Shown piece after piece: positions 2,050-60,033 of a stretch of 64,000 nucleotides of DNA (the stretch's first letter is position 1; each line of letters starts with the position of its first letter). Under the pieces are notes generated by a model that was not told where the DNA came from, made no database searches, and saw only the letters and a list, made by a program, of their open reading frames with translations. The position numbers and the translations under genes are program-made. Origin of the DNA: Actinomycetales bacterium (lineage in GTDB: Bacteria; Actinomycetota; Actinomycetes; Actinomycetales; JBBRBF01); NCBI GenBank assembly GCA_038206105.1, contig JBBRBF010000013.1, positions 4,930 through 68,929 of the forward strand. Direction: 5' to 3'.

Positions 2050-2102
2050 CGGTGATCACGCATCTCAGGTCCCCCGGCTGTACCTGACGTGCATGATCAC
2101 CG
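2050..2102. repeat. GGTGATCATGCAC-family repeat, inverted pair (imperfect hairpin) between convergent ptsI and folD
   Basis: cGGTGATCACGCATCTCAGGT-N11-ACCTGACGTGCATGATCACCg. Confidence 0.85.
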
Positions 2103-2118
2103 CAGGGGACGCGTCGCC

Positions 2119-3015
2119 TTACCCCGACTCTCGCGCCTCGGCGGCGCGCTCTGCGGCGTCGACGACGTTCGCGAGCAGCATCGCCCGGGTCATCGGGCCG
2201 ATCCCGCCGGGCACCGGCGAGAACCAGCCGGCGACCTCGGCGACGGCCGGGTCGACGTCCCCCACGAGCCGAGACCGCCCGGTCGCGGCGTCGTGCTCCC
2301 GGTTGATGCCGACGTCCACGACGACCGCCCCGGGGCGCACCATGTCGGGCGTCACCATCGCCGGGACGCCGGCCGCCGCCACCACCACGTCCGCGGCGCG
2401 GGTATGCGCGGCCAGGTCGCGCGTGCCGGTGTGGCACGACGTCACCGTGGCGTTGACGGCCTTGCGCGTCAGCAGCAGACCCAGGCTGCGTCCCACGATC
2501 ACGCTGCGGCCGATCACGCACACCTCGGCGCCGGCGAGGTCGACACCGTGGCGCGCCAGGATCTCCACGACCCCGTGCGGCGTGCACGGCAGCGGCGTCG
2601 TCATCGGTCCGCAGACGCGGGCCACCAGCTGGCCGAGGTTGCTCGGGTGCAGCCCGTCGGCGTCCTTGGCCGGGTCGACCAGCTCGAGCACGCGCTGGGA
2701 GTCGAGGCCGCGCGGCAGCGGCAGCTGCACGATGAAGCCCGTGCACGCCGGGTCGGCGTCCAGCTCCCGGACGGCCGCCTCGACCTCGTCCTGGGACGCC
2801 GTCGCCGGCAGGTCGACCCGCAGCGACGCGATCCCGACCTCCTCGCAGTCGCGGTGCTTGCCCCGCACGTACGCCTGGCTCCCCGGGTCGTCCCCGACGA
2901 GCACGGTGCCGAGACCGGGCAGGATGCCCCGCTCCCGCAGTGCGTCGACCCGTTGCCTCAGCTCGAACTTGATCGCGGCGGCGGTGGCCGTGCCGTCGAG
3001 GATGCGGGCGGTCAT
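2119..3015 (-). CDS. folD: Bifunctional methylenetetrahydrofolate dehydrogenase/cyclohydrolase
   Basis: [38 protein letters not shown] and [18 protein letters not shown] before ATG 3015. Confidence 0.95.
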
Positions 3016-3069
3016 CGGGGCGGCTCCTAGGTCGGACTGGGTCGTACACCCATGCGCGTCGGGCGGCGG

Positions 3070-3156
3070 GTACCCGACGTGCATGATCACCGGGGGTGGG
3101 CGTACCCGACGTGCATGATCACCGGGGGGTAGGGGCCCCTGACGTGCATGATCACC
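3070..3156 (-). repeat. Three tandem copies of the GGTGATCATGCAC-family repeat (period 32/33 bp) between glyA and folD
   Basis: gtacccgacgtgcatgatcacc at 3070-3091 and 3102-3123; gcccctgacgtgcatgatcacc at 3135-3156. Confidence 0.9.
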
Positions 3157-3178
3157 ACGAAGGTGGGGCGGGAGCGGG

Positions 3179-4468
3179 TCAGGCCTCCAGGCCGGGGTAC
3201 AGCGGGAACGCGGCGGCGAGCGCCGCCACCCGGCCGCGCAGCGCGGCGAGGTCGGCCTCCGGCTTCAGCGCCGAGGCGATGATGTCGGCGACCTCCCCGA
3301 ACTGCTCGTCACCGAAGCCGCGGGTCGCCAGCGCCGGCGTCCCGATCCGCAGCCCGGAGGTGACCATCGGCGGCCGCGGGTCGAAGGGCACCGCGTTGCG
3401 GTTGACCGTGATCCCGGCCTCGTCGAGCCGGTCCTCGGCCTCCTGGCCGTTGAGCTTCGACTCGCGCAGGTCGACCAGGGTCAGGTGGACGTCGGTGCCG
3501 CCGGTCAGCACCGAGACGCCGTGCTCGGTGACGTCGTCGGCGAGCAGCCGCTCGGCGAGGACCCGTGCCCCGGCCACGGTGCGCTCCTGCCGCTCCCGGA
3601 ACTCCTCCGTCGCCGCGATCTTGAACGCGACCGCCTTGGCAGCGACCGCGTGCATCAGCGGCCCGCCCTGCTGGCCGGGGAACACGGCCGAGTCGATCTT
3701 CTTGGCGTACTCCGGCTTCGCGAGGATCACGCCCGAGCGCGGGCCGGCGAGCGTCTTGTGCACCGTGGAGGTGACGACGTCCGCGTGCGGCACCGGCGAG
3801 GGGTGCAGGCCGGCGGCGACGAGCCCGGCGAAGTGCGCCATGTCGACCATGAGCATGGCCCCGACCTCGTCGGCGATCTGCCGGAACGCCGCGAAGTCGA
3901 GGTGGCGGGAGTAGGCGGACCAGCCGGCGATGATGAGCTTCGGCCGCCGCTCCAGCGCGACCTTGCGGACGGCGTCCATGTCGACGAGGTGGGTCCGCTC
4001 GTCGACGCCGTAGGCGGCGACGTCGTACAGCCGGCCGCTGAAGTTGATCTTCATCCCGTGGGTGAGGTGGCCGCCGTGGGCGAGCTCGAGGCCGAGGATC
4101 GTGTCGCCGGGGCGGATCAGCGCGTGCATCACCGCGGCGTTGGCCTGTGCACCGGAGTGCGGCTGCACGTTGACGTGCAGGTCGGGCACGTCCGCGCCGA
4201 ACAGCGCGCGCGCCCGGTCGCGCGCCAGGTTCTCGGCGACGTCGACGTGCTCGCAGCCGCCGTAGTAGCGCCGGCCGGGGTAGCCCTCGGCGTACTTGTT
4301 GGTCAGCACCGACCCCTGCGCCTGCAGCACCGCCCGCGGCGCGAAGTTCTCGCTGGCGATCATCTCCAGCGTGCCCCGCTGGCGGCCGAGCTCGGCGTCC
4401 AGCACGGCGGCGATCTCGGGGTCGACGTCGGCCAGCGGGCGGTTGGTGACGTCCTCGTGGTGGCTCAC
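3179..4468 (-). CDS. glyA: Serine hydroxymethyltransferase
   Basis: [37 protein letters not shown] (PLP lysine) and GLRIGTPA. Confidence 0.97.
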
Positions 4469-4516
4469 GCGTTCTCTCCTCGGCTCACGGCGGGTGGTCG
4501 TCGGCTCGTGACGCCG

Positions 4517-4596
4517 GGCCCAGGCGGGCGACCCGGCGGCGGAGATCCTGCTCGGCCGCTCCCCGGTGGTGACCCACCCGCGCCAGTCGCGACCGC
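4517..4596 (-). ncRNA. ZMP/ZTP (pfl) riboswitch in the glyA-folD leader
   Basis: Minus strand reads GGUCGCGACUGGCG..GGUGG..CCACCGGGGAGCGGCC...CGCCCGCCUGGGC, matching the pfl consensus. It starts just after a TAGCCT -10 box (4606-4601) and precedes one-carbon/folate genes. Confidence 0.92.
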
Positions 4597-4634
4597 CGCC
4601 AGGCTAGCCGACGTCGCCGGTAGCCTCGCACCCC

Positions 4635-5504
4635 GTGAGCGGGCGGGGGAAGGGTGAGCGCGCGGACCACTGGGTGCTGACGCTGTCGTGCCCGGACCGG
4701 CCCGGCATCGTGCACGCGGTCGCCGGGGTGCTCGCCGGCGCCGACGGCAACATCACCGAGAGCCAGCAGTTCGGCGACCCCGGTACCGGCCGCTTCATGA
4801 TGCGGGTGCAGGTGCGCCTGCCCGCGACGCGCGAGGAGCTGCACGCGGAGTTCGCGTCCGTCGCGCAGCGGTTCGCGATGGACTGGGGCCTGCACGTGCT
4901 CGGTCGGCCGGTCCGCACGCTCGTGCTCGTCAGCCGCGCCGGGCACTGTTTGAACGACCTGCTGTTCCGGTGGCGGTCGGGGCTGCTGCCGGTGGACGTC
5001 GCCGCGATCGTGTCGAACCACGAGGACCTCGCGGGGATGGCCGGGACCTACGACGTGCCGTTCCACCACGTACCGGTCACGCCCGGGACGCGAGCGGCGG
5101 CGGAGCAGCGCCTGCTCGACCTCGTCAGCGACCTCGACGTCGAGCTCGTGGTGCTGGCCCGGTACATGCAGGTGCTCTCCGACCCCGTCTGCACCGCGCT
5201 GGCGGGCCGGGCGATCAACATCCACCACTCTTTCCTGCCCTCGTTCCGCGGTGCGCGCCCCTACGAGCAGGCGTACGAGCGGGGCGTCAAGCTCATCGGC
5301 GCCACGGCGCACTACGTCACCGCGGACCTCGACGAGGGCCCGATCATCGAGCAGGACGTCGAGCGCGTCGACCACGCGATGTCGCCCCGCGAGCTCGTCG
5401 CGATGGGCCGGGACGTCGAGGCCCGGGTGCTCGCGCGGGCGGTGCGCTGGCACGCCGAGCAGCGCGTGCTGCTCGACGGGCACCGCACCGTCGTCTTCCG
5501 GTGA
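4635..5504 (+). CDS. purU: Formyltetrahydrofolate deformylase
   Basis: ACT domain CPDRPGIV, HCLNDLL, LARYMQVLS, INIHHSFLPSF, GATAHYVT and LDEGPIIEQ. TAGCCT -10 at 4621-4626 suggests a leaderless transcript. Confidence 0.96.
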   Translation: MSGRGKGERADHWVLTLSCPDRPGIVHAVAGVLAGADGNITESQQFGDPGTGRFMMRVQVRLPATREELHAEFASVAQRFAMDWGLHVLGRPVRTLVLVSRAGHCLNDLLFRWRSGLLPVDVAAIVSNHEDLAGMAGTYDVPFHHVPVTPGTRAAAEQRLLDLVSDLDVELVVLARYMQVLSDPVCTALAGRAINIHHSFLPSFRGARPYEQAYERGVKLIGATAHYVTADLDEGPIIEQDVERVDHAMSPRELVAMGRDVEARVLARAVRWHAEQRVLLDGHRTVVFR

Positions 5505-5507
5505 GGC

Positions 5508-6222
5508 TCACGGTGGTGCGGGACGCTGCGGGGGTCCGGCCGGGTGGCCCCGGGTCTCGGCGGCGCCCGGGGCGACGAACCCGGTGCGGTAGGCCCACAC
5601 CACCGCCTGCGTGCGGTCCCGGACGCCGAGCTTGCCGAGCACGGCCTTGACGTGGGTCTTGACGGTCTCGGGCGACAGCCACACCCGACCGGCGATCTCG
5701 GCGTTCGAGGGGCCGTCGGCGAGCGCCCGCAGCACGTCCGCCTCCCGGTCGGTGAGGCTCGCGGCCAGCCGGAGCCGCTCGGCGTCCGGCGGCCGGCGGC
5801 CGGCGCTCGGCGTAGGCGGCCAGCAGCCGGCGCGTCACCGCCGGGGCCACCAGCGCGTCCCCGGCGAAGACCGTGCGGATCGCCTCGATCAGCTGCTCCG
5901 GCGTGGCCCGCTTCAGCAGGAAGCCGTCGGCACCGGCGTCCAGCGCGTCGTCGACGACCTCGTCCAGGTCGAACGTGGTCAGCACGAGCACACGGGGTTG
6001 CCGGGACCACGACACGATCTCCCGGGTCGCGCCGACCCCGTCCAGCCTCGGCATCCGGACGTCCATGAGGACGACGTCGGGGCGCAGGTCCCGGGCCCGC
6101 GCGACCGCCTCCCGCCCGTCGGCCGCCTCCCCCACCACGCGGATGTCGGCCTCCGCGTCGAGCAGGGCGCGCAGCCCGCTGCGCACCAGGGCGTCGTCGT
6201 CCGCGAGCAGGACGCCGATCAC
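5508..6222 (-). pseudogene. NarL/LuxR-family response regulator, frameshifted
   Basis: The receiver domain (VLLADDDALVR..LMDVRMP..FLLK) and the HTH (LTDREADVL..SNAEIA..TVKTHV) lie in different frames. The shift is at a 7-bp duplication, 5785-5805. Confidence 0.85.
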
Positions 6223-7267
6223 GCGCCACCCCCGGCCATCACGGGCAGCGCGGCGCGGACGCGGAACCCGCCGTCGACCGGCCCCGCCTCCAGCTCCCCA
6301 CCCTCGAGCCGGGCGCGCTCGGCCATGTTGACCAGCCCGCGCCCCGGCACGGTGTCTTCGACCCGGTCGCACGCGTTGAGGACCTCGAGGCGCACCTGCG
6401 GGCCGCTGCGGACCACCTCGACCCGGATGGGTCCCGGCGACCCGTGGCGGACGGCGTTCGTCAGCGCCTCCTGCACGATCCGGTAGACGGCGCGGGCGCC
6501 GCTCGCAGGCAGGTCGGCCGCGTCGGTGCGCAGCGACACCTGCCGTCCCGTCGCGCGGACCCGGTCCGCGAGCTGCTCCAGGTCGGCCACGGTCGGCGCG
6601 AACGGTTCCTCCAGCGCCTCGCGCCCGTCCGACTGCAGCACGCGCAGCAGCCGGTTGAGCTCGTCGAGCGCGCCGCGCCCGGCGGACTCGATGTGCGTCA
6701 GCGCCTCGCGCGAGTACGCCGGGTTGTCGGCGAAGACGCGTCGCCCGACGCCGGCCTGCAGCACCATCACGTTCACCGTGTGACCCAGCGAGTCGTGCAG
6801 CTCGCGGGCCAGCCGGCCGCGCTCACCGAGCAGCAGCCGCTCCGCCGCCAGCGCCGCCTCGCGGCTCTCCGCCGCTCGGTGAACGTCCGCCGCCGCCGAG
6901 CGGGCCCGTCAGCTGCTGATCTCGCCGGCGACCGTGGCGACGGCGAAGCTCGTCACGATCGACGGCAGCGACCCGACCGGGTCCCCACGGTCGAGCAGCA
7001 GGTACCCGGCGACGGTCACAGCCGTGGTGCTCGCGGCTGCGGACCGCAGCCGTCGGCCGCCGAGGGCGACGCACGTGAAGAGCGCGATCCAGGCCAGTCA
7101 CCCAGCGTCGCGGCGTCCACCGACCGGTAGGGGGCCTCGGTGGGCCAGGCGGCCGCGTAGACCACCGCGAGCACCGCCAGGCCGGCGGCCAGCCACACGT
7201 CGTGCGGCAGGGAGGCGGCAGCAGCGCGTCGCACGGGACGGGCTGCGGCCTGCACCGACGACGACAC
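6219..7267 (-). pseudogene. HisKA_3 membrane sensor histidine kinase, disrupted
   Basis: ARELHDSLGH H-box, QEALTNAVRHG N-box and GRGLVNMAER. In-frame TGA at 6911-6909 (GEISS*RARS) and a frame break near 7097 between TM segments. Confidence 0.8.
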
Positions 7268-7469
7268 GCCCCATCCTGTCGCCGCGCGGCGTCGAAGGCG
7301 ACACCCCGCAGGGGTCGACCCGGTCCCCCGTGCGAGGGAGGTCGCCTCGCCGCGGACCACCCGCGCACGTCGGTCGTCGACCCCTCGCAGGGCTCGTCGA
7401 GCGGCCCCGCGCGGCGGCAGCCTCGGTGGCCTCCCGGTGCACGGCACCGGCCGAGTCCCGGAGGCCCCG

Positions 7470-8213
7470 ATGACCCTGACCGTGTCCCGCCCGCCGCAGC
7501 GGTGCCGTCCCCGGCGGTCCACGGGAGCCGCCTGGTTCCTCGGCCTCACCTGCCTGGCGATCGCCGTCCTGGCACTGGTCCCCTACGCGACGTCGTCGCT
7601 GCAGGAGCTCGGCGCCGACCCGAGCCAGATCGCCGCCACGTACGTGGACCAGCCGCTGCCGGTCCGCGTCGCGCTGTACCTGCACGTCGGCTTCGCGGTG
7701 CTGGCCCTGCTGCTGTCGCCGGTACAGCTGTCGCCAGGGGTCCGGGCACGGGCCCCTCGGCTGCACCGGGTCGTGGGGCGGACGGTGCTCGCCGCGATCG
7801 CCGTCGCCGGCAGCGCCGGGCTGGTGATCGCGCCCTTCACCCGCGCCGGCGTCGCCGGGGCCCTCGGGCTCGCCACCCTCGCGGTGTTGTGGGTGACCTT
7901 CGCCGCCGCCGCGCTGCTCGCGATCCGCCGCCGGGACGTCGCCGCGCACCGGCGCTGGGCGGTCCGAGCGTTCGCGATGACGTACGCCGGCGTCACGCTG
8001 CGGATGTGGCTGCCCACGCTCATCGTGGCGCAGGTGCTGCTGCTCGGCACCGACCCCGAGCTCGCGTTCGACCGCGTCTACCCGGTGGTCGCGTGGCTGG
8101 CGTGGGTCCCCAACCTGCTCGTCGCGGAGCGGTCCCTCGCCGCCGGACGGCGTCGCCCCTCGCTCCGTGCGAGCGGCGCGGACCGGCGTCCCGACGTCGT
8201 TCCCCAGCGGTGA
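7470..8213 (+). CDS. DUF2306-type membrane protein
   Basis: About 6 TM segments with LYLH, PRLHRVVGR, AHRRWAVRAFA and WLAWVPNLLVAE. GGAGG RBS; divergent from the TCS, a common layout. Confidence 0.8.
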   Translation: MTLTVSRPPQRCRPRRSTGAAWFLGLTCLAIAVLALVPYATSSLQELGADPSQIAATYVDQPLPVRVALYLHVGFAVLALLLSPVQLSPGVRARAPRLHRVVGRTVLAAIAVAGSAGLVIAPFTRAGVAGALGLATLAVLWVTFAAAALLAIRRRDVAAHRRWAVRAFAMTYAGVTLRMWLPTLIVAQVLLLGTDPELAFDRVYPVVAWLAWVPNLLVAERSLAAGRRRPSLRASGADRRPDVVPQR

Positions 8214-8261
8214 TCGTGCGACCCGGGCACCTCGGCCCGTACCCGGAGTGCATGATCACCG
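8208..8261. repeat. GGTGATCATGCAC-family repeat, inverted pair between convergent genes
   Basis: cGGTGATCGTGCGACCCGGGCAC-N8-GTACCCGGAGTGCATGATCACCg. The left arm contains the TGA stop of the upstream gene. Confidence 0.85.
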
Positions 8262-8272
8262 AGGGGGTGGGG

Positions 8273-8926: not shown

Positions 8927-8974
8927 GGCCCGATCATCGCACCCCGGCCGGCGCGACCCCGGCGCTCGACCCGC

Positions 8975-20287: not shown

Positions 20288-20396
20288 GTCGTCGGGTCCC
20301 TTCTGCGTGCGGCTCGCGCGGTCGGCAGGCACCCTAGTGTGCCCGCCGGCGGCACCTCCCGCCCCACCCCGCCGGCGCCCACCCAGGAACCCACAC

Positions 20397-20418
20397 GGTG
20401 ATCATGCACTTCGGGTAC
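20397..20418 (+). repeat. Single copy of the GGTGATCATGCAC-family repeat
   Basis: GGTGATCATGCACTTCGGGTAC between icmB-like and sucC. Confidence 0.85.
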
Positions 20419-20453
20419 GCGGGTCAGGGTGCCGGGATGGCGCGGGGAACGCC

Positions 20454-25693: not shown

Positions 25694-25748
25694 GGACCCG
25701 AAGTGCATGATCACCGCTGGGGGGGCGGACCCGAAGTGCATGATCACC
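25694..25748 (-). repeat. Two tandem copies (33-bp period) of the GGTGATCATGCAC-family repeat between convergent genes
   Basis: GGACCCGAAGTGCATGATCACC at 25694-25715 and 25727-25748. Confidence 0.9.
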
Positions 25749-25756
25749 GCGAGGGG

Positions 25757-26095
25757 TCACCAGAGCACGGCGACGAGCACGTTGAGGACGGCGAGCCCGC
25801 CCGCGACGTGCACGAGGCGCACGGGTCCACCCCGGTTGCGGCCCACGGCGACCACGCCGGCGACGACGAGCGCCACGACGAGCTTGACCGCGATCTTCGT
25901 GCGGTCGACGTCGTGGTCGACCGCACCGGACTCGGCCAGCCCCACCAGGGCGATCCCCGTGACCAGCTGGGTCAGCGCCCCGTGCCACATCCCGGGGAGC
26001 CAGCGCGGCTCGCGGACGACCGCCAGCCAGCCGCCGACGATCACAGCCATGCCGAGCAGGTGCAGCACGACCAGCAGGTCGTAGACGAGCTCCAT
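25757..26095 (-). CDS. Small 4-TM integral membrane protein
   Basis: LVVLHLLG, HGALTQLVTG, KIAVKL and NVLVAVLW. TAGCCT -10 lies 7 nt before the ATG. Confidence 0.8.
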   Translation of the reverse strand: MELVYDLLVVLHLLGMAVIVGGWLAVVREPRWLPGMWHGALTQLVTGIALVGLAESGAVDHDVDRTKIAVKLVVALVVAGVVAVGRNRGGPVRLVHVAGGLAVLNVLVAVLW

Positions 26096-30418: not shown

Positions 30419-31236
30419 GCACCCGGCCCGCCGCCGCAGGTCTGGCCGGGGTGGTGCTGGCCGCCGGCGCCGGCACCCGGCTGCGACCCCTGACCAACCT
30501 GCGCCCGAAGGCGCTGTGCCCGGTCGCCGGCGTGCCGCTGGTCGACCTGGCGCTGAACCGGCTCGCCGTGCACACCGGCGCGGGCAGCGGGCACCTGGCG
30601 GTGAACGCCCACCACCACGGCGACCGGCTCGCGGCCCACGTCGCGGGCCGCGCGCACGTCTCCCGCGAGGAGGTGGCGCTCGGCACCGCCGGAGCGCTGG
30701 GTGCGCTGCGGGACTGGGTCGACGGCCGCGACGTGCTCCTCACGAACGCCGACGCGTGGCTGCCGCACGGGGTCGAGGCCCTCGTCGACGGCTGGGACGG
30801 CGAACGCTGCCGGCTGCTCACGGTGGCGGCGGCCGACGCCGGCGACTTCCGCGCGCCGGACGGGACCCCGGTGCGCTACGTCGGTGCCTGCCTGCTGCCG
30901 TGGTGGGTGCTGTGCGACCTGACCGCCGAGCCGACCGGGCTGTACGAGGTGGTGTGGCGGGACGAGGCCGCCGCCGGGCGTCTCGACGTCCACGTGACGA
31001 CCGCGCCGGCTGTCGACTGCGGCACGCCGTCGGACTACCTGACCGCGAACCTCGGCGCGACCGGCGGCCGGAGCGTGGTCGGAACCGGGGCGAGGGTGCA
31101 CGGCACGCTGGAGCGGGCGGTGGTGTGGGACGGCGCGTGGGTCGGCCCCGGCGAGCACGTGCGCGACGCGGTGCGCGCAGGGGACCGGCGCCACCCGGTG
31201 ACCGTGCACGCGCGCCCCGGACCGCCGCCGACCTGA
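30415..31236 (+). CDS. NTP-transferase (nucleotidyltransferase, MurU/sugar-phosphate type)
   Basis: LAAGAGTRLRPLT..PKAL, VNAHH, LGTAGAL, NAD and DCGTP. GTGA overlap with the upstream NUDIX gene. Confidence 0.85.
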   Translation: MSTRPAAAGLAGVVLAAGAGTRLRPLTNLRPKALCPVAGVPLVDLALNRLAVHTGAGSGHLAVNAHHHGDRLAAHVAGRAHVSREEVALGTAGALGALRDWVDGRDVLLTNADAWLPHGVEALVDGWDGERCRLLTVAAADAGDFRAPDGTPVRYVGACLLPWWVLCDLTAEPTGLYEVVWRDEAAAGRLDVHVTTAPAVDCGTPSDYLTANLGATGGRSVVGTGARVHGTLERAVVWDGAWVGPGEHVRDAVRAGDRRHPVTVHARPGPPPT

Positions 31237-36793: not shown

Positions 36794-37701
36794 GGCCGCG
36801 CCCCGGCGTCGGAGGGCTGAGGGGGCCCGCCCTGGTCGGCACCCTGTTCAGCACCGTGGTCGGCGCCAGCGGCAGCCGGGCTCGTGCGGGAGGTCACCGG
36901 GTCATCCTCCCCGGCTGCCCCCGGTCCCGGGACCGGGGGTCGCCGCGCGGACGGGTCGGGCTCGGCATCGCGGCGGGGAGCCTGGGCCTCCCGGCGGTGG
37001 GCCTCGGCCACCACGCGCCACCAGACGAAGACCGCGAAGCCGGCGAAGACCCACCACTGCAGGGCGTAGGACAGGTTCCGCAGCTCCAGGCCACCGCCCC
37101 CCCGGTCGGGCTCGGGCAGCGCGACGAGCGGCGCCGGCGGCACCGGTTCGGTCACCGCCAGGTACGCCGTCCACAGCGGCGTGCCCCAGACGTTGGCGAG
37201 GTCGGCGGGGCTGACCGCGTCGACGCGGGCGACGTCGGCCCCGGGGGCGAGCCCGGTGGGTGCGCTGCCGGCCTCCAGCCGGCCGGTGAGCCGAACGGTC
37301 CCCGTGGGTGCCGGGGGGACGTCGGCGGGTCCGGCGCCCGGCCCCGTCGCCCCGCGGACGACGGGCAGGCGCGCCCGACCGTCCGGGGTGTCAACGAGCA
37401 AGGGGGTCAGCACCCAGGTCGCGTCCCCGGCGTCCACGAGCAGCTGCTCGCCCGGGTCGTAGCGGCCGGTGACGGTGACGGTGCGTCCCACCACGGCCCC
37501 GGTCACGGGTGTCGCCGGGGGCAGGACGGACAGCAGGTCCGTGGCGGGCTGGCCGGCGCGCTGCGACTGGGCGGCGCGGGCGTCCGCCTCGACCCGCGAC
37601 CGCTGCAGCTGCCAGTCCCCGAGCCAGGCGAAGGTCGCCGCCAGGCCGAGCGCGGCCGCGAGCAGGGCCAGGTGGCGGGGCCGGGTCGCGGTGCGGAACA
37701 C
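36790..37701 (-). CDS. SURF1-family protein
   Basis: [19 protein letters not shown] and [15 protein letters not shown]. Confidence 0.85.
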
Positions 37702-37717
37702 ACCAGCACGCTACGTC

Positions 37718-39369
37718 GTGGCGTCGCGGGACCGGCTCCGGACGGGTCGCGACGGCGACGGCGAGCAGCCCGACCGACGTCGGACCCGGGGACGCTTCCT
37801 GCACCAGGTCGCCCGCCGGCAGGCCGCCACCTGGCCTGGGCGCCGCGGCGGGAGCGTTGTGGATGCTCGCCCAGGCCCTCGTGCCCTGGGCGCTGGGACG
37901 AGCCGTGGACGCCGGGCTCACGGCCCGCGACCTTGGCGCCGTGGCGCTGTGGGCCGCCGTCCTGCTGGGGCTGGCTCTGGCCCAGGCGTGCGCCGGGACG
38001 GTCCGGCACCGGCTGGCCGTGAGCTGCTGGCTGCAGGCCGCCCTGGGCACGTGCCGCCTCGTCGGCCATCACGTCGCGGGGACCGGCGGCGCGCTGCCGC
38101 GCCGGCTCCCCACCGGCGAGGTCGTCTCCACGGTGGCGACCGACTCCGTGCGGGTCGGGGAGGCGTTCGACGTCGTGCCGCGCTTCGTCGGGGCCCTGGT
38201 CTCCGCCGTCGTCGTCGCGGCGCTGCTGCTGGACCGGTCCGCCGTCCTGGGACTGGTGGTGCTGGCCGGCGTCCCGGCGACGGCGGCCGTGCTCGCGCTC
38301 GTCGTACGGCCGTTGGAGTCCCGGCAGGCCGCGCAGCGCGCGACCTCCGGCGAGCTGACCGCCCTGGGGGCCGACACCGTCGCGGGCCTGCGCGTGCTGC
38401 ACGGGGTCGGGGATGAGCGGGTCTTCCTGCGTCGGTACGTGCAGCGCTCGCCGGAGGTGCGGCAGGCGGGCGAGCGGGTCGCCGGGGTGCAGGCGACGCT
38501 CGACGCGCTGCAGGTGCTGCTGTCGGGGCTGCTGCTCGCCGCGGTGACGTGGCTCGGCGCGCGGGCGGTCGTCGCTGGGTGGCTGACGCCCGGCGAGCGG
38601 GCTCGTGGTCCGTCCCGGCGGGCTGAGCGTGGTGGCCGCCGAAGGCCCGGACGGCGGCGCCGCGCTGGCCGCCCGGCTCGGCCGGCTGCGCGACGACGCC
38701 GGGCCGCCCGCTGTCCCGGGTGGCGTGCCCCTGACGCAGCTGCCGGTCGCGGCCGTCCGGCGCCGCGTGGTCGTGTGCGGCGGCGACGCCGACCTGTTCA
38801 CCGGCTCGCTGTGGCGGGTGCTGGACCCCTCGGGCCGGCACAGCGACGCGGAGATCCGGGCGGCCTGCGCGACGGCGTGCGCGGACGACGTCCTCGCGGC
38901 CCTCCCGCGCGGGCTCTCGGAGGACATCAGCGAGCGGGGCCGGTCCCTGTCGGGCGGACAGCGCCAGCGACTCGCGCTGGCGCGGGCCCTGCCACCGGCG
39001 CGGAGGTGCTGGTGCTCGTCGAGCCGACCAGTGCGGTCGACGCGCACACGGAGGCGGCGGTGGGCGAGGCGCTGCGCGCCGCGAGGGCGGGACGCACCAC
39101 GGTCGTGCTCACCACCAGCCCGCTGCTGGCGCAGCGGGCCGCGAGGTGGTCCTGCTGCCGAGGGACGGGTCGCGGCGACCGGGATCCACGGCGGGCTCCT
39201 GCGACGCCGGGACGCGGTCGGCCGCCGCTACCGCCGGGTCGTGCTCCGCGACCTCGCCGACGCCGTGGCCGGTGCCGACGCCGTGGCCGGTGCCGACGCC
39301 GAGGAAGGGGTTGACGCCGAGGAAGGGGTTGACGCCGGGGCACGCCTGCAGCACGAGGTGGTCCGGTGA
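37718..39369 (+). pseudogene. ABC exporter TMD-NBD half, with multiple frameshifts and an internal deletion
   Basis: Pieces in different frames: GRFLHQVARRQ / WMLAQALVPWALGRAVD..GLRVLHGVG / GLVVRPGG..SLSGGQRQRLALARAL / VLVEPTSAVDAHTE. Breaks near 37832, 38597, 38995 and 39145. Confidence 0.85.
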
Positions 39370-41130
39370 GCACGACGCTGCCGGTGTCCTCGTCCGCCGC
39401 GGTGAGCGCCGAGACGACGCGGCTGCTGCGCTCGCACCGCGGCCGGCTGGCCGGGGTCGTAGCGCTGCACGCCCTGGCCGCCCTGGCGGCCCTCGGCGCA
39501 CCCTGGCTGCTCGGCGTCCTCGTCGACGCGGTGACCGCGGGCACGACCGAGGCGGTGGTCGACCGCACCGCCCTGCTGCTGCTCGGCTTCGTCGCGGCCG
39601 ACGCTGCGCTCACGCGTTGGCCGCAGCGGTCCGCGCTCGTGCTCGGGGAGGACGTGTTCGCCTCGCTGCGCGAGGAGTTCATGACCCGGGTCACGTCGCT
39701 TCCGCTGTCGACGGTCGAGCGGGCCGGCACCGGTGACCTCGTCTCCCGGACGACGAACGACGTCGAGGCGATCCAGTGGGCGGTCCGCTCGGCGTCCCCA
39801 GCATCCCCAGCGTCCTCGTGCGGCGACGACCGCGACGCTGACCGCCGCGGCTGCCACCGCTCGCGGGGGCCCGGCCGCGCTCGCGCTGCTGGCAGGCCTG
39901 CCACTGCTCGCCGTCTCGACCCGCTGGTACCTGCGCCGGGCGCCTCGGGGGTACCGGCGCGAGCGGGCGACGTACGCGCGCCTCAACGGCGTCATCACCG
40001 AGACCGTCGACGGGGCGGCCACGGTCGACGCGCTCGACCTGGCCGCAGCCCGCCGCCGGGAGGTCGACGACGCGCTGCGCAGCTGCTTCGCCGCGGAGCG
40101 CTACACGCTGGCGCTGCGGACCCGGTGGTACCCGGTGATCGAGACCGGGTACCTGCTGCCCGTGGCGGCGTCGGTGCTGTGGGGCGGCGTCCTCGTCAAC
40201 GGCGGGTACGCCTCCGTGAGCGAGGTGACGACGGTCGCCCTGCTCGCCGTCCGGCTGGTGGACCCGATGAGCGAGCTCGTGGCGTGGCTCGACGAGCTCC
40301 AGGTGGGGGCGGCGTCGCTGGCGCGCATGATCGGGGTCGCCGAGGTGGCACCGGACCGTACGGCCTCGGGGGCGCAGCCCGACGGCACGGACCTGGTGGT
40401 CACGGGCGTGCGCTACGCCTACCGACCCGGCGTCGACGTCCTGCACGGGATCGACCTCGCCGTGGCTCCCGGTGAGCGACTCGCCGTGGTGGGACCGTCG
40501 GGAGCCGGCAAGTCCACCCTCGGGCGGCTGCTGGCGGGCGTGCACCCGCCCCGGGCCGGGTCGGTGCACGTCGGCGGCGTCCCGGTGACGGACCTGCCCC
40601 TGCCGCGTCTGCACCAGGAGGTAGCCCTGATGACCCAGGAGCACCACGTCTTCGTGGGGACGCTCGCCGACAACCTCCGGCTCGCCGACCCGGAGGCGGA
40701 CGACGCGGCCCTCGTGGCAGCACTGACCGCGGTGGACGCGCTCGCCTGGTTCGGCGCCCTCCCGGCTCGGCCTCGGCACCGACGTCGGCTCGGGCGCCCT
40801 GGCGCTCACCCCGCCGCAGGCACAGCAGGTCGCCCTGGCCCGGCTGCTGGCGCGGCCCCACACCCTCGCGCTGGACGAGGCGACGTCGCTGCTGGACCCC
40901 CGGTCGGCGCCCCACCTCGACCGCTCCCTGTCGGCGGCCTCGCGGGCCGCAGCGTCGTCGCCATCGCGCACCGGCTGCACACCGCGCACGACGCGGACCG
41001 GGTCGCCGTCGTCGAGGCCGGCCGGGTCGTGGAGCTCGGCAGCCACGACGAGCTCGCCGCCGCCGGCGGCTCCTACGCCAGCGCTGTGGCGCGCCTGGCA
41101 CGAGCCGGACCGCGGCGGCGCCCGACCTGA
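39366..41130 (+). pseudogene. Partner ABC exporter TMD-NBD half, frameshifted
   Basis: ERAGTGDLVSRTTNDV, GPSGAGKST, QQVALARLL..LDEATSLLDP (shifted frame) and IAHRLHTAHDAD. Breaks near 39790-39830, 40770 and 40935. Confidence 0.85.
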
Positions 41131-41210
41131 CCCCGCCGCGGGGTGACGAACCGCTCGTCCGCCGTCGGTCCCACCCGCGCCGCCGCCCGCGTGGGTAGAC
41201 CTGCACCAAC

Positions 41211-41344
41211 CCCGGTTGGCACAGGGCGCCCCTGTGCCAACCGGGTTGGCATGGGGCGCCCCTGTGCCAACCGGGTTGGCGGGGTTGGCGGGGTTGGCGG
41301 GGTTGGCGGGGTCGGCGGGGTCGGCGGGGTCGGCGGGGTCGGGG
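41211..41344. repeat. Two 30-bp palindromic units followed by a G-rich 9-mer tandem array
   Basis: Perfect 16-bp stem cccggttggcacaggg-cgc-ccctgtgccaaccggg, a second variant unit, then (ggggttggc)3(ggggtcggc)3ggggtcgggg. Confidence 0.9.
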
Positions 41345-41348
41345 CGCG

Positions 41349-42305
41349 TCAGGCGGACGGCGGCGCCAGCGCGGCGTAGTCGACACCGGTGAGCTCGACC
41401 GAGCGCTGCCACAGCCAGGCCGCGGCGCCCGGGTCCGCGGCGCGGGTCGACGGCGTCTCCACCACCGGCAGACCGCGCATCCCGCCGCGGGGTCCGACGA
41501 GCGCGCCACCGGGCAGGTCGTCGACTGCGGCGCGCAGCGTCGGCCACGCCCCGGCCTCGGGGCTCTGGCCGACCGCGCGGCTCGCCAGGGCGCTGAGCCG
41601 AGCCAGCCACGGCATGCCGTCCATCCGGGCACCGACCTGCTGCAGGTTCGTGGCGGCGAAGCCGGGGTGGGCAGCGGTGCTCGTCAACGGTACGCCGGCG
41701 GAGTCGGCACGACGCTGCAGCTCGAGGGTGAAGAGCAGGTTCGCCAGCTTGGACTGCCCGTATGCCGACCAGCGGGCGTACCGGTGCTCGAGCATCAGGT
41801 CGTGGGCGTGCAACCGCCCGATCCGGTGCATCGCGCTGGTCACCGTGACCACCCGGGGCTCCGGCGCGGCGAGCAGCGCGCCGAGCAGCAGCCCGGTGAG
41901 GGCGAAGTGGCCGAGGTGGTTCGTGCCGAGCTGCATCTCGAAGCCGTCCGCGGTGCGCCGGTGCGGGATCGCCATCACGCCGGCGTTGTTCACGAGCACG
42001 TCGAGCCGCCCCTGCGGCAGCTCCGGCGGCAGCGTCGCCGCGAGCTCGCGGACGGACACCAGGTCCGCGAGGTCGAGGCGGCGCACCACGGCGGAGGCGT
42101 GCGGGGCGGCGTCGCGGACCGCCGCGAGCGCCGCCTCCCCTCGCTGGGCGTCGCGGCAAGCGAGGACCACGTGAGCGCCGGCGCCGGCGAGCGCGGTCGC
42201 CGCGGCGAGGCCGATGCCCGAGTTCGCACCCGTGACGAGCGCCGACGTGCCGGTCAGGTCACCGAGGGAGTCGGTGGTCCACGCCGCGGTGGTCTCGTCG
42301 CTCAT
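41349..42305 (-). CDS. SDR oxidoreductase (retinol/protochlorophyllide reductase-like)
   Basis: TGANSGIG, NNAGVM, GTNHLGHF, YGQSK and AHPG. Confidence 0.92.
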   Translation of the reverse strand: MSDETTAAWTTDSLGDLTGTSALVTGANSGIGLAAATALAGAGAHVVLACRDAQRGEAALAAVRDAAPHASAVVRRLDLADLVSVRELAATLPPELPQGRLDVLVNNAGVMAIPHRRTADGFEMQLGTNHLGHFALTGLLLGALLAAPEPRVVTVTSAMHRIGRLHAHDLMLEHRYARWSAYGQSKLANLLFTLELQRRADSAGVPLTSTAAHPGFAATNLQQVGARMDGMPWLARLSALASRAVGQSPEAGAWPTLRAAVDDLPGGALVGPRGGMRGLPVVETPSTRAADPGAAAWLWQRSVELTGVDYAALAPPSA

Positions 42306-49778: not shown

Positions 49779-49840
49779 CTGGCACCCTGACGTGCCGAGT
49801 GCCAGCCGCGAAGTTAGCACTCGGTCCGGGCGAGTGCCAA
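49779..49840. promoter_or_regulatory. Two CIRCE (HrcA) operators overlapping the groES promoter
   Basis: TTAGCACTC-N9-GAGTGCCAA (49814-49840) and CTGGCACCC-N9-GAGTGCCAG (49779-49805). Minus-strand promoter TTGGCA-N18-TAACTT. Confidence 0.92.
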
Positions 49841-49857
49841 CCCCCCGCCCCTCTCCT

Positions 49858-49943
49858 GGTGATCATGCGATCCGGGTCCGCCGGCACGCGCGCCACCGGC
49901 CCCGCGCTCCGGTGATCATGCGGTGATCACGCGATCCGGGTCG
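49858..49943 (+). repeat. GGTGATCAYGCG-variant repeats (two full, one truncated) in the divergent groES/methyltransferase gap
   Basis: Copies at 49858-49879, 49911-49921 and 49922-49943. Confidence 0.8.
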
Positions 49944-51161: not shown

Positions 51162-51178
51162 CGCCACCCCCCCCCCCC

Positions 51179-51263
51179 GGTGATCATGCACTCCGGGTCC
51201 GCCCCCGCCCGGTGATCATGCACTCCGGGTCCGCCCCCGCCGGTGATCATGCACTCCCGGTAC
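51179..51263 (+). repeat. Three tandem copies (32/31-bp period) of the GGTGATCATGCAC repeat, preceded by a C12 tract
   Basis: GGTGATCATGCACTCCGGGTCC at 51179 and 51211; GGTGATCATGCACTCCCGGTAC at 51242. Confidence 0.92.
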
Positions 51264-53507: not shown

Positions 53508-53518
53508 GACGTCGCAGG

Positions 53519-56342: not shown

Positions 56343-56348
56343 CGCGGC

Positions 56349-58028
56349 TCAGTGTCCCAGCGCGGTGCCCCGTCCGCGCAGCAGGCTCGCCACGGCGGCG
56401 GGGACGGCGTCCAGCACCGACCCCGCGGACACCGGCCCGCCGCCGGAGGCGAGGTGCCCCGCGCGGCCGTGGACGACGACGGCGAGGCTGGCGGCGTCCA
56501 GCGGGTCGAGCCGGGCCGCCAGCAGGGTGCCGGCCAGGCCCGCGAGCACGTCCCCGGAGCCGGCGGTCGCCAGCCAGTGCGGACCGTCGCGCTGTGAGCG
56601 CACCCTCCCCTGGGGCTCTCCCGGGCGTGACGGCTCGACGACGAGGGACGTGGCCCCCTTCAGCAGCACCGTCGCGCGGGTCAGGTCGGCGGCCCGTCGG
56701 GCGTGGCGCAGCGGCGCCGCCTCGACGTCGGCCCGGTCCACGGGCTCGCCGTACGCCCCGAGCAGGCGGGCGAGCTCGCCGGCGTGGGGGGTCAGCAGCC
56801 GGACGGCGGGCACACCCGTGCGGTGGTCGGGCGCGAGCAGGCCCAGCGCGCCGGCGTCGACGACGGCCGGCTCGCCGGAGGCGAGCGCGGAGGCGACCCG
56901 GTCGGCCTGCTCGACGTCGTCGGGGTCGACACCTGGCCCCAGCACCCACGCCTGCACACGGCCCGGTCCGACCGTCTCCGGCCACCGCGACCGGACCATC
57001 GCCGCGGCGGCCTCCGGGCCGAGGTAGCGGACCATCCCCGCGCCGGAGCGGACCGCGGCGCCGCACGCGAGCACCGCCGCACCGGTGTAGGTGGCACCGC
57101 CGGCCACGACGCCGACGACACCGCGGGAGTACTTGTCGTCGCGCGGCCCGGGCACCGGCCACAGCGCGGCGGCCTCGCGGTCCCCGAGCCGGGTGGCGGC
57201 GGGGGCGGCGTCCGCCAGGTCGGCGTCGAGCCCGATGTCCACGACCTGGACCCGTCCCGCCGCGGCGTCGCCGGGTGGCAGCAGCAGGGCGGGCTTGCCC
57301 GTGCCGAACGTGACGGTCACGTCGGCGCGTGCGTGCGGCCCGGGTGTCTCCCCGGTGGCCGGGTCGACGCCGCTGGGCAGGTCGACGGCGACGACGGTCG
57401 TGCCGGGAGGCACCGCCGCGACGACAGCGGCCGCCGCCCCGCGCAGCCCGCCGCGACCCCCGATGCCGAGCAGCCCGTCGACGACGACGTCGGCAGCCGC
57501 GATCAGGCCCCGCGCGGCCGCGGCGTCGGCGTCGTCGTCGCCCGAGGCGGTGGCACCGGTGGTGGCGTCGTGGACCCGGCCCCCCGCGGCGAGCAGCGCA
57601 GCCGTCCCGCCGGCGTGGGCGCCGCCGGTGGTGAGGACGGCGTCCACCCGGGCGCCCCGCCGGGCCAGGCGAGCGCCCGCGTACAGCGCGTCGCCGCCGT
57701 TGTTGCCGCCGCCGACCAGCAGGACGACGCGGGCACCGCCCACCCTGCCGCCCCGGTCGCCGTCGACGGCCGGTCCGCTCCTGCCCCCGCTGCGCGGACG
57801 GCCCCGGCCACGCCTCAGCTCGGCTGCGACGGCGGCTGCCAGTCCCGCCGCGGCGCGCTGCATCAGCGCGCCGTCCGGCAGCCGTGCCATCACCGCTGCC
57901 TCTGCCGCCCGCACGTCGTCCGGGGTGTGCGCCACGAGCCCCGTCGCCCCGCCACCGGGCCCGCGCGGACCCCTGGGGGCCGGGCTGCCCCGCCGGTGCC
58001 GGAGCCCGGCCACGCGGGCGCCGGTCAC
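56349..58028 (-). CDS. nnr: Bifunctional NAD(P)HX epimerase/dehydratase
   Basis: [32 protein letters not shown] and [12 protein letters not shown]. Start uncertain. Confidence 0.9.
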
Positions 58029-58402
58029 GACCCGCTCCCCACGGGCGCGACCTCGCCCTCGGCCACCACGACCGCGGAGGCGATGCCGGCGTCGTGCGAC
58101 AGGGACAGGTGGAACGTCGCCACCCCCAGCTCCGCCGCCCGGGCCGCGACGCTGCCGGCGACGTCCAGGCGCGGACGCCCGTTCTCACCCCGGTGCACGG
58201 TGCAGTCCGTCCAGCGCAGCCCGACCGGGGCGCCGAGTGCCTTCGCGACGGCCTCCTTGGCGGCGAAGCGTGCCGCCAGGGAGGCGGGCGGCAGGTGCCG
58301 CTCGGCGTCGGTGAACAGCCGGCGGGCGAGCCGCGGGACGCGCTCGAGCTGGCGCGAGAACCGGTCGACGTCCACGACGTCGATGCCGACGCCGACGATC
58401 AC
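58025..58402 (-). CDS. acpS: Holo-ACP synthase
   Basis: [22 protein letters not shown] and HLSLSHD. Confidence 0.94.
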
Positions 58403-58503
58403 GGGTGCGGTCCCTGGCTCGCCATCCCCCCATCCTGCCCGCCGCCGGCGGGAACGCGCCGCCGGTGCGGCGCGTGGCGCGCCGGCCGGGGTACAACGGG
58501 CAG

Positions 58504-59904
58504 GTGCGCGCCCAACCCACCGTCCTCCACCTGGACATGGACGCCTTCTTCGCGGCCGTCGAGCAGCGCGACAAGCCCTCGCTGCGGGGCAAGCCGGTCG
58601 TGGTCGGGGGCACGGGGTGGCGGGGCGTCGTCGCAACGGCCTCCTACGAGGCCCGGGCGTTCGGGGTCGGCTCGGCGATGCCCACCGCCCAGGCCCGCCG
58701 TCGCTGCCCGCACGCGGCGTACCTGTCCGGACGGTTCGCCGCCTACCAGGCGGCCTCGGCCCGGGTGCTCGAGCTCGCGGCGACGCTCTCGCCGGTGGTC
58801 GAACCGGTCTCCCTCGACGAGGCCTACGTCGACCTCGAGCCGGGCGGCGGGGCCCTGGACGTCGCCGCGGTACGTCAGCGGGCCGCGGCGTTCCGCGGCC
58901 AGGTGCTGGCCGCCACGGGTCTGACGGTGTCGGTCGGCGTGGGCACGAGCAAGCTGGTCGCCAAGATCGCCTCCGACCTGCACAAGCCCGACGCGCTGGT
59001 CGTCGTGGCACCCGGGCAGGAGGCGGAGGTGATGGCCCCGCTGCCCGCGCGCGCCCTGCCCGGAGTCGGCCCGGTCACCGCCGAGCGGCTCGCCCGTCAC
59101 GGCCTGCGCACCGTCGGGGACGTCGCCGCCGCCGGTGCGGACGAGCTGGTCGCCGTCGCGGGGCGCTCGCACGGCACAGCGCTGCGCGCGTACGCGCGGG
59201 GCGAGGACACCCGCCCGGTCGTCGCCGAGCGGGACGCCAAGTCGGTCTCGGCGGAGGAGACGTTCGCCACGGACCTCGTGGACCGGCGCGAGATCGCGCA
59301 CCACGCCACGCGGCTCGCCGACCGGGTCGCCGAGCGCCTGGCCCGGCACGGCACCTGGGCCCGCACCGTCACGGTGAAGGTCCGGCGGTACGACTTCACC
59401 ACGCTGACGCGGGCACGCGCCCTGGACCACCCCGGCGACGACGGCGCCGCGATCGCCGCTGCGGCCCGGCGGCTGCTGGACGACGTCGACGTGTCGGGGG
59501 GCGTCCGGCTCCTCGGCGTGGGCGTCACGGGCTTCACCGGGTTCAGCCAGCAGGACCTGCTCGCCGACCTGCTCGCGCCGCCGCCGGACGCGCTGCCCGC
59601 ACCGCACGGACCCCCCACGCTCGGCGACGACCCCGACGCCGCGGTGGAGGCCGGCGCCGACCCGGAGCCCGACGGACCGGAGCCCGACGGACCGGAGCCC
59701 GACGGACCGCCGCGCCGGTGGCGCCCGGGCCAGGACGTCCACCACGGCGAGCACGGCCCAGGCTGGGTGCAGGGGTCGGGGCTCGGCCGGGTCACGGTGC
59801 GCTTCGAGGGCCCCGGGACGCCGCCGGGCCGCGTCCGCACCCTCGCCGAGGACGATCCCCGGCTGGCTCCCGCCGACCCCCCACCCTTCCCCCCACCCCC
59901 GTGA
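58504..59904 (+). CDS. dinB: DNA polymerase IV (DinB1-type, with a C-terminal extension)
   Basis: [33 protein letters not shown] and LPGVG; clamp-like motif QQDLL. Confidence 0.94.
59662..59709. repeat. 15-bp tandem repeat (PEPDG x3) in the DinB linker
   Basis: ccggagcccgacgga x3. Confidence 0.8.
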
Positions 59905-60033
59905 TCAAGGACGTCGCGCGTCGCCGGCCGCCGTGATCAAGGAACGCGTGGCGCTGCCGGGGCGTGCGAGGCGAACCAGATGCAGGAGTTCCTTGATCAC
60001 CGGGGGTGTGGGTGCGGGAGTTCCTTGATCACC
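59901..60033. repeat. Second subfamily GTGATCAAGGAAC: two forward and two inverted copies, each pair 32 bp apart
   Basis: Forward copies at 59901 and 59933; inverted TGC(A/G)GGAGTTCCTTGATCACC at 59981-60001 and 60013-60033. Confidence 0.88.

Follow-up and report, generated by a model that had tools for sequence, protein, structure and literature searches.

A dispersed intergenic repeat of Actinomycetales and its probable partner, an AbiEi-like/DUF559-type nuclease gene

Introduction

Repetitive extragenic palindromic (REP) sequences and the REP-associated tyrosine transposases (RAYTs), known mainly from Proteobacteria, are the textbook example of a short-repeat family with its own single-copy enzyme. 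Here we analyse a dispersed repeat with a TGATCA core in a 64-kb stretch of an Actinomycetales genome (the window, G000:C13:4930-68929, from assembly G000 of 3.11 Mb, 96 contigs, 74.8% G+C and 92.7% completeness), together with its candidate partner gene, which lies outside the window and encodes a protein with an AbiEi-like winged helix-turn-helix (wHTH) half and a Vsr/DUF559-type nuclease half. A previous sequence-only reading of the window had proposed a non-autonomous, REPIN-like or MITE-like system (MITEs being miniature transposable elements with inverted repeats), mobilised in trans by an enzyme encoded elsewhere, and had named a multicopy DUF559/AbiEi-type endonuclease gene flanked by the same repeats as one candidate.

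In REP/REPIN-RAYT systems (PMC2817692, PMC3116915), a high-copy extragenic repeat forms arrays and inverted doublets, its cognate gene is present in few copies and has inverted repeats on both sides, repeat sequence and gene co-vary, and inheritance is largely vertical; RAYTs are likewise presented as resident, co-evolving enzymes in PMC5581495. The system described here shares these traits, with a different enzyme framed by inverted repeats at all 20 loci compared, and with largely vertical inheritance suggested by the place that the gene keeps next to clpX in four families. It departs from them in the enzyme, which is a wHTH protein with a Vsr/DUF559-type PD-(D/E)XK nuclease domain instead of an HUH Y1 transposase, and in the repeat: REPs are palindromes of 20-40 bp with a GT(A/G)G or CGTC head, whereas the present unit is non-palindromic and tagless. 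Units of 16-32 bp are here commonly arranged in direct tandem arrays with C-rich spacers, unlike in REPs, and the host is an actinobacterium.

A second related element is TRIT, the 'Tuberculosis Rho-independent terminator' motif of Mycobacterium, a conserved, mostly bidirectional gene-end hairpin with ~150 copies centred about -8 from the stop codon (PMC3152330). Like TRIT, the repeat studied here is a conserved, mostly bidirectional repeat that forms hairpins at gene ends of a high-GC actinobacterium, and some copies overlap the stop codon. TRIT is reported from Mycobacterium alone. In the present repeat, only 26 of 345 units contain the stop codon, most units being placed 4-100 nt beyond it; in addition, many units are single or in direct arrays, and the text of PMC3152330 at our disposal describes no partner gene for TRIT. 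The host of the present repeat is not a Mycobacterium, its best-named relatives being Actinomycetales such as Kineococcus and Quadrisphaera.

On the enzyme side, the Vsr/DUF559 clade is classed among the PD-(D/E)XK nucleases, and one of its members is a homing endonuclease of a group I intron (PMC3424549). A literature search that did not cover subscription journals and supplementary files returned no paper tying DUF559, MTES_1575 or AbiEi-like genes to dispersed repeats; the letters of the motif retrieved unrelated primers only, and nothing relevant was obtained on repeats in Kineococcus, Quadrisphaera or Georgenia. The system looks like an undescribed counterpart of the REP/RAYT partnership.

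Structure and abundance of the repeat unit

The unit, of about 32 bp, is composed of a C-rich leader of about 10 nt, a CGGTGATCA head and a subfamily-specific tail. The conserved head reads (G)GTGATCA followed by TGCAC in family A or by AGGA in family B, and continues as TGCACnTCGGGTAC in the former and as AGGA(A/C)nnCGnGC in the latter. The resulting consensus, a C-rich stretch plus CGGTGATCATGCACnTCGGGTAC or ...CAAGGA(A/C).., is not self-complementary as a single unit, and neither it nor any of the window loci carries a GTAG or CGTC tag, as the sequence-only reading had stated. Each position of the head is more than 95% conserved, and the base following it is free. About 345 strict units were counted in G000, about 190 of family A and about 154 of family B (147 and 154 exact cores, respectively, in 3.11 Mb), and they account for about half of the 697 genomic TGATCA sites; the enrichment expected for the motif is thus genome-wide and involves two subfamilies.

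Units occur as singles, as tandem arrays with a period of 31-33 bp and as inverted pairs with the heads outward. Among 174 family-A units, 94 are single; there are 45 adjacent direct pairs, 35 of them with the 31-33-bp period, and 28 head-outward inverted pairs as opposed to only 4 head-inward ones. Typical inverted pairs are palindromes of ~50 bp, two inverted units being needed for a hairpin. The free position is identical in both arms of 16 of the 28 inverted pairs and in 31 of the 45 direct neighbours, above the chance expectation of 0.34, which indicates that neighbouring units are either related by local copying or constrained to pair.

Two features of the head were recorded separately. 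It carries a TGA stop on both strands, and GGTGATC is followed by ATG in family A and by AAGGA in family B. The GGTGATC string (e.g. window 51179-51191) is complementary to the GAUCACC stretch in the 3' tail of 16S rRNA, with which it might pair, and this may hint at a link to ribosomes.

Identification of a nuclease gene framed by the repeats

Candidate partner genes were sought in the 26 gene-sized gaps between units in G000 (13 of them head-outward), and 18 genes bracketed in this way were taken and compared with each other. The only pair with more than 35% identity was C15:2234-2986 and C71:2052-2963 (59%). Both genes (C15:2234-3154 and C71:2052-2963) match AbiEi_1 and REase_MTES_1575 (PF18741, a DUF559/Vsr-like nuclease domain). 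The C15 gene is framed by 4+2 family-A units and the C71 gene by 4+3 family-B units, in both cases with the heads outward. The sole four-unit run of family A in the genome adjoins the C15 gene, and the largest arrays of the genome are those at the gene. Three further paralogs are distant (up to 35% identity over most of their length, with one 65-residue fragment at 48%), and the distant paralogs on C16 and C64 have no dispersed repeat. The candidate put forward by the sequence-only reading is supported, with qualifications: AbiEi_1 plus REase_MTES_1575 genes framed by inverted arrays do exist, but the DUF559 model PF04480 gave no hit in G000 at E <= 0.001, and the match is to the related PF18741; as for its being multicopy, two cognate and three distant paralogs were found, but only the two cognate ones are framed by dispersed units.

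Scanning 17 bracketed proteins revealed no transposase, and the RAYT/Y1 model (Y1_Tnp, PF01797), whose absence the earlier reading had left to be checked, had 0 matches in G000, G008, G090, G386, G031 and G052, three of these five relatives being 100% complete; of 14 control genomes, 6 did give matches to it. A reverse transcriptase, considered because the C-rich leaders could be untemplated tails, was discarded, as RVT_1 does not follow the repeats: the complete G008, although rich in repeats, lacks it, whereas G001 and the repeat-poor G075 have it.

Downstream of the distant AbiEi/DUF559 paralog of C64 (G000:C64:800-1230) there is a local tandem repeat of three GTACGAGGACRCAGGGGAAGTGCC-like copies, with only one further copy in the genome, on C31.

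Twenty ortholog loci from 18 genomes, picked for diversity, were then compared. All 20 are framed by inverted arrays of a genome-specific unit and follow a common plan consisting of the upstream stop, a C-rich tract, a direct array (1-5 units), a box, the gene, an inverted array (1-4 units) and a G-rich tract. The inverted array begins a few bases past the stop of the gene, whose product ends in ..R.W. The box, (C)TGTGGA(T/C)(A/G)(A/C), is found upstream of the nuclease gene in 19 of the 20 loci, including C15 and C71 of G000, and starts exactly 48 nt before the predicted start codon in 13 of these 19, and in 16 of them the distance is 47-50 nt. In reverse complement, the box resembles the DnaA box consensus (TTATCCACA). 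The framing unit changes with the genome and with the paralog: each of the three paralogs of G035 has a different unit, and G291 uses a 16-nt unit. The framing units of G276 and G345 lack TGATCA and have 33 and 142 dispersed copies in the respective genomes; the G345 unit has 10 copies in a gene-positive congener, and both units have 0 in unrelated genomes. Furthermore, the protein tree of genus g9 separates G008 and G090 from G031 and G176, in agreement with two unit tails.

Many metagenome contigs that code for a homolog of the nuclease measure only ~1.0-1.4 kb, close to the length of the gene itself, as expected of assembly breaks at framing repeats.

Features of the nuclease family and its chromosomal position

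The 20 orthologs align over their full length, with the ESxGES, RLD, EYDGxxxH and D..RR motifs invariant or nearly so. Residues D227, E238, D240, H245, D254, R257 and R258 are invariant in all 20 sequences, as is the motif ExDGxxxH...D..RR; they include the acidic and His residues of the catalytic type (D227, E238, D240 and H245), and with its catalytic motifs intact the nuclease looks active, as far as its residues indicate. Pfam models recognised in the orthologs were MTES_1575 (PF18741) in 17, AbiEi_1 in 13, AbiEi_4 in five and DUF559 (PF04480) in two, and a DUF559 model of NCBIfam matched one of the 20. The protein thus resembles the Vsr/DUF559 clade in its C-terminal half and the AbiEi antitoxin of the type IV system AbiE in its N-terminal half, which matches AbiEi_4, AbiEi_1 and the AbiEi models of PADLOC. 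Unlike in AbiE, the C-terminal half is a nuclease domain and no AbiEii nucleotidyltransferase (toxin) gene is adjacent, the neighbours at seven loci being clpX, valS, serS, HAD, GGDEF-EAL, P450 and Rieske genes. Unlike its Vsr/DUF559 relatives, the gene has no mismatch-repair, methylase or intron context, is fused to an AbiEi-like part and is framed by its own repeats. Relatives carry the public names 'AbiEi family antitoxin', 'very-short-patch-repair endonuclease', 'DUF559 domain-containing protein' and 'hypothetical protein', and the named genera with close homologs include the cultured Kineococcus, Quadrisphaera and Georgenia.

The gene is located between valS and clpX in G000 (C15), G001 and G147 (families f1, f2 and f14), and between a GGDEF-EAL gene and clpX in G090 and G031 (f9), with one extra open reading frame (ORF) in G031. 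In G008 it lies elsewhere, not at clpX, and the second G000 paralog (C71) lies between serS and a HAD hydrolase gene. In G125 the GGDEF-EAL/ORF/clpX site is devoid of both gene and arrays, with ~40 bp left, and the genome has five core copies. Since the place of the gene is kept in four families while the flanking units change with the population, the gene appears to be a resident, co-evolving enzyme.

Co-occurrence of the gene and the repeats in the order

Presence of gene and repeats was surveyed in 401 genomes of the order, with no member of the family of G000 other than G000 itself. The 14-mer CGGTGATCATGCAC was present in 60 of the 401 genomes and its reversed control in 0. It reached high numbers in only a few genomes, with 136 copies in G000, 137 in G386, 70 in G090, 52 in G008, 14 in G035 and 11 in G046. 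This probe undercounts, as G031 and G176, of genus g9, have 104 and 56 copies of GTGATCATGCAC, with another flanking base and tail; the g9 congeners G125 and G052 have five copies and one copy of it, respectively.

In the first ten genomes analysed, close orthologs of the gene (47-55% identity, E 1e-67 to 1e-90) were present in all seven repeat-rich ones, and four of these (G008, G031, G176 and G090) have the ortholog precisely in the interval between two unit arrays; G052, G125 and G075 had distant paralogs only. Orthologs at E <= 1e-45 were detected in 39 of the 401 genomes: 11 of the 13 genomes with at least three CGGTGATCATGCAC copies have one vs 28 of the 388 others, the two exceptions being G043 (68% complete) and G374. 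With a second, generic probe for variants of the head, TGATCWWGSA, at least 100 hits were found in 24 of 39 gene-positive vs 8 of 362 gene-negative genomes, in a table that was read by eye and with a threshold set afterwards. When five gene-negative outliers were rechecked at E <= 1e-20, a broken ortholog was found in G197 and none in the other four. The contrast between genomes with and without the gene recurs within genera g9, g39, g20, g74 and g22: in g9, four species with 56 to more than 100 copies have the gene and two with one and five copies do not, and in g39 there are 137 copies with the gene vs 0 without it. In a sample of the phylum searched at E <= 1e-40, a single match outside the order was found (G734), besides G000 and the same-order G001.

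The broken ortholog of G197 consists of two adjacent pieces (G197:C3:558500-559373; 46% and 40% identity) in a genome that keeps 243 probe hits, and may be a case in which the partner gene broke recently and left its repeats orphaned.

Comparison of two spacers across g9 provided information on the turnover of the repeat. In G052 neither spacer holds a unit, the flanks being 4 and 14 bp apart, and the other g9 species have one to three units there in differing arrangements. Tails are specific to the genome, with GTTCGCCCC in G008 and G090 and GCCAG(C/A).. in G031, G125 and G176. From this comparison, the repeat is old in the group and turns over fast, and copies within a genome are alike. A scan of a wide collection of genome contigs with GGTGATCATGCACNNCGGGT gave 27 single hits in unrelated taxa, about the number estimated by chance, and is uninformative because the unit tail is genome-specific. 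The G000 lineage has no close relative for a presence/absence test: metagenome relatives of its THUMP-like gene have no more than 71% identity, and the GGTGATCA matches in them lie in coding sequence. According to these metagenome relatives and the g9 spacers, distant relatives do not share fixed repeat loci; such fixation, as expected of a regulator site, is what the sequence-only reading had named as a counter-indication.

Proposed mechanism and alternative explanations

We consider it very probable that the nuclease gene and the repeats form a specific functional pair, and probable, with a smaller degree of confidence, that the units represent the non-coding, dispersed part of a partnership of repeat and enzyme that is REP/RAYT-like but uses a different enzyme. 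Whether the spread of the repeats is driven by the nuclease itself is a closer matter, on which the balance tips slightly in favour, if at all. The fullest form of the proposal, to which we give an even chance, is that Actinomycetales harbour a second, independently evolved symbiosis of a domesticated enzyme and a repeat, in which a resident wHTH-Vsr/DUF559 nuclease beside clpX would create, spread and homogenise the units by PD-(D/E)XK chemistry. The REPIN-like reading proposed at the outset, and the enzyme named in it, are supported by the way in which orthologs track the repeats across the order. The data establish the anatomy of the units, their genome-wide bias, the framing of the gene, the co-occurrence and co-variation of gene and repeat and the intact catalytic motifs; the mobilising step itself is one that we infer.

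In such a mechanism, the DNA-binding, AbiEi-like winged-helix half would recognise the head of the unit, and the Vsr/DUF559-type, PD-(D/E)XK half would nick or cut at or beside it. Repair or recombination at the break would then copy units to new sites, replication slippage would grow them into arrays, and selection would leave those copies landing just past gene ends. The population would stay matched to the 'master' arrays that flank the gene, giving each genome and each paralog its own unit and a uniform set of copies. Hairpins between convergent genes might additionally serve as 3'-end structures. The placement just past stop codons could reflect targeting or selection against other sites.

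Several observations weigh against this proposal. The nuclease assignment is based on Pfam matches and motif conservation, a search of PDB sequences with the family profile found no solved structure at E <= 1, and binding, cleavage and transposition by the enzyme are what we infer from its domains and its surroundings. The conserved position beside clpX implies that the gene itself is not mobile, and therefore that it is no simple insertion sequence. No target duplication was seen at two filled/empty junctions in g9 genomes, whose flanks are 80-89% identical. The 94 single units among the 174 of family A form no hairpin, and the origin of single units and of C-rich leaders is outside any present model. 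As for the co-occurrence, seven gene-negative genomes (G129, G374, G286, G043, G326, G075 and G384) have high probe counts and no ortholog was found in them; 15 gene-positive genomes have fewer than 100 probe hits, two of which (G276 and G345) use units invisible to the probe. Finally, related genomes are not independent samples, and the 20 framed loci were not picked at random.

The placement of the units relative to genes, which we also count in favour of the partnership, bears on the first alternative, in which the repeats are mainly gene-end signals of the host (hairpins or C-rich RNA acting as terminators, like TRIT, or protecting mRNA 3' ends), selected as such and not spread by the nuclease. 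REPs are known for an mRNA-stabilising role. Of the exact cores in G000, 142 of 147 in family A and 110 of 118 in family B fall between genes (in a first gene set with 82% coding), more than 93% overall. The 163 loci with an exact core comprise 67 convergent, 52 co-directional and 18 divergent spacers, 23 sites called as coding and three contig ends, vs 455 convergent, 1887 co-directional and 452 divergent background spacers, so the intergenic position and the bias towards convergent genes anticipated from the window extend to the whole genome. Within co-directional loci, units are sense to the genes in 29, antisense in seven and mixed in 16. For 252 of the 345 units the nearest upstream feature is the end of a sense gene, most units lie 4-100 nt beyond the stop codon, and in 26 the TGA of the head is itself the stop codon of the upstream gene. 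The convergent and sense biases, the units just beyond stops, the ~50-bp palindromes with matching free positions in 16 of 28 pairs (0.34 expected) and the occupation of the same spacers in several g9 species would all suit gene-end signals. On the other hand, 94 of the 174 family-A units have no partner arm, and the hairpins are followed by G-runs and not by T-runs. Moreover, the number and arrangement of units vary between congeners, some of which have nearly none, which implies that no locus depends on them, and the framing of the nuclease gene and the change of unit with the gene are left unexplained. As a full account, we judge a gene-end role unlikely; it could hold as a secondary role alongside the partnership.

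An equally unlikely alternative is that the nuclease is a homing-type selfish gene inserted into pre-existing repeat hairpins, the repeats being its targets and not its products. Some insertion sequences do target REPs. The gene sits at the would-be loop of a head-outward inverted pair, some genomes have repeats with no detectable gene, and a homing endonuclease of a group I intron belongs to the Vsr/DUF559 clade (PMC3424549, PMC3239194). However, there is one copy of the gene per unit type despite hundreds of potential targets, and the largest arrays of the genome are at the gene. Its location beside clpX in five genomes of four families, with differing flanking units, is better explained by a resident, co-evolving gene.

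Less likely still is that the units are operator or architectural sites of an AbiEi-like protein, forming a regulon or a nucleoid array, with copies arising through local duplication and selection only. The match of the N-terminal half to AbiEi regulator models would agree with this, as would a head conserved position by position and followed by a free base, and an array period of 31-33 bp, which corresponds to about three helical turns. Nevertheless, the nuclease residues are invariant, so that an enzymatic act is conserved; only 18 of the 163 loci are divergent, though divergent spacers are the class with the largest amount of intergenic DNA, and hundreds of near-identical copies at unrelated housekeeping genes are unlike a regulon. 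Finally, we regard it as very improbable that ordinary MITEs, or a DDE-type insertion sequence missing from the assembly and represented by its solo ends, account for the units. Inverted pairs do resemble terminal inverted repeats with a short middle, and the assembly is 92.7% complete, with repeats often unassembled. However, the same layout occurs in complete genomes whose framed locus contains no element of this kind, MITEs do not look like direct tandem arrays of 16-32-bp units, the two junctions mentioned above show no target duplication, and the nuclease gene is the only consistently framed gene.

If the partnership of nuclease and repeat holds, such partnerships would have evolved more than once, and a widespread family annotated as 'AbiEi antitoxin', 'DUF559' or 'hypothetical protein' would acquire a testable function. 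It would also explain breaks at short lineage-specific repeats in actinobacterial intergenic regions and in metagenome assemblies.

Repeat loci of the 64-kb window

The window was searched in several ways, and the sequence was read directly at all eight loci. With up to two mismatches, GGTGATCATGCAC has 17 matches in the window vs 0.92 expected (4 in the largest shuffle), 14 of which fall in the loci below; the other three, all with two mismatches, are at 31197, 44798 and 54202. GTGATCA alone gives 27 matches vs 3.1 expected. Profiles of families A and B, trained solely on units from other contigs, were then run on the window. The family-A profile produced 11 matches at E <= 2e-6 (2080-2108, three in 3069-3165, 8238-8269, 20390-20420, two in 25694-25757 and three in 51170-51263) and weak ones at E 0.015-0.39 that correspond to divergent arms or variants (2045-2072, 8202-8215, 49851-49868 and 49909-49921). 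The family-B profile gave four matches at 59901-60040 (E 2e-3 to 2e-7), and no locus beyond the eight was found in the window below E 0.01. The 20 copies at eight loci claimed by the sequence-only reading, with none elsewhere in the window, were thus recovered as 19-20 units by independent profiles. Gene context was taken from codon-bias gene calls (2890 genes, 88% of the genome) and Pfam; these calls likewise place all loci between genes and five of the eight between convergent ones (ptsI/folD, DUF2306/unknown, PIG-L/unknown, THUMP-like/tsaD and dinB/glmS). A Pfam scan of the 36 window proteins found no transposase, again as previously reported, and Rfam gave 0 matches at gathering score in the 64 kb. 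The flanking genes are housekeeping genes, namely ptsI, folD, glyA, sucC, groES, the THUMP-like methyltransferase gene, tsaD, dinB and glmS.

The first locus, at 2045..2108, is an inverted pair (hairpin) of family A, divergent in its left arm and canonical in its right (E 0.032 and 4e-9), that occupies the convergent spacer between ptsI and folD. It is followed on the minus strand, at 3069..3165, by a tandem array of three family-A units with a period of 32-33 bp (E 1e-9, 4e-10 and 2e-6), just 3' of the glyA stop and upstream of folD, in a co-directional spacer. A second inverted pair of A units, also with a divergent left arm, is located at 8202..8269 (E 0.39 and 1e-9), in the convergent spacer between the DUF2306 gene (7437-8213) and a gene of unknown function; the stop codon of the former is the TGA within the left head of the pair. 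At 20390..20420, on the plus strand, a single family-A unit (E 2e-9) lies between the co-directional sucC and a gene with a B12-binding domain, antisense to both. Two tandem A units occupy 25694..25757 on the minus strand (E 9e-10 and 4e-10), starting 9 nt past the stop of the gene at 25757-26095(-); this spacer, too, is convergent.

The single divergent locus is the groES/THUMP-like spacer, where three variant units (GGTGATCAYGCGATCCGGGTC), one of them truncated, are present at 49851..49943 on the plus strand with weak values (E 0.03 and 0.015), next to a CIRCE-like palindrome. On the same strand, 51166..51263 holds a C-run followed by a tandem array of three A units with a period of 31-32 bp (E 1e-8 to 2e-7), which starts 5 nt after the stop of the THUMP-like gene in its convergent spacer with tsaD. 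The last locus, at 59890..60041, is a composite palindrome of family B with two forward and two reverse units, heads outward (E 2e-5, 2e-3, 5e-7 and 2e-7); the TGA of its first head is the stop codon of dinB, and the spacer is convergent with glmS.

The GGTGATCAYGCGATCCGGGTC form of 49851-49943 is a third unit variant with 7-13 copies genome-wide; no cognate gene was found for it in G000, and it may be a relic of an older subfamily. The palindrome adjoining these variant units upstream of groES, TTAGCACTC-N9-GAGTGCCAA (window 49813-49842), resembles the consensus of the CIRCE/HrcA operator.

Public sequencing runs were also examined for the window. One soil DNA run contains the stretch (share 0.90), and three RNA runs match 5-6% of its words. 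Four DNA runs yielded mostly glyA of other organisms and repeat-induced joints, with no usable sign of polymorphism or transcript ends. Contigs of the soil run end within the 2045-2108 hairpin (2084-2089), and repeat-to-repeat joints are also present; these ends and joints are assembly effects of the repeat and not evidence of rearrangement. Elsewhere in the window, the region 37701-41349, with ~78% G+C, has few confident gene calls and contains long overlapping ORFs on both strands.

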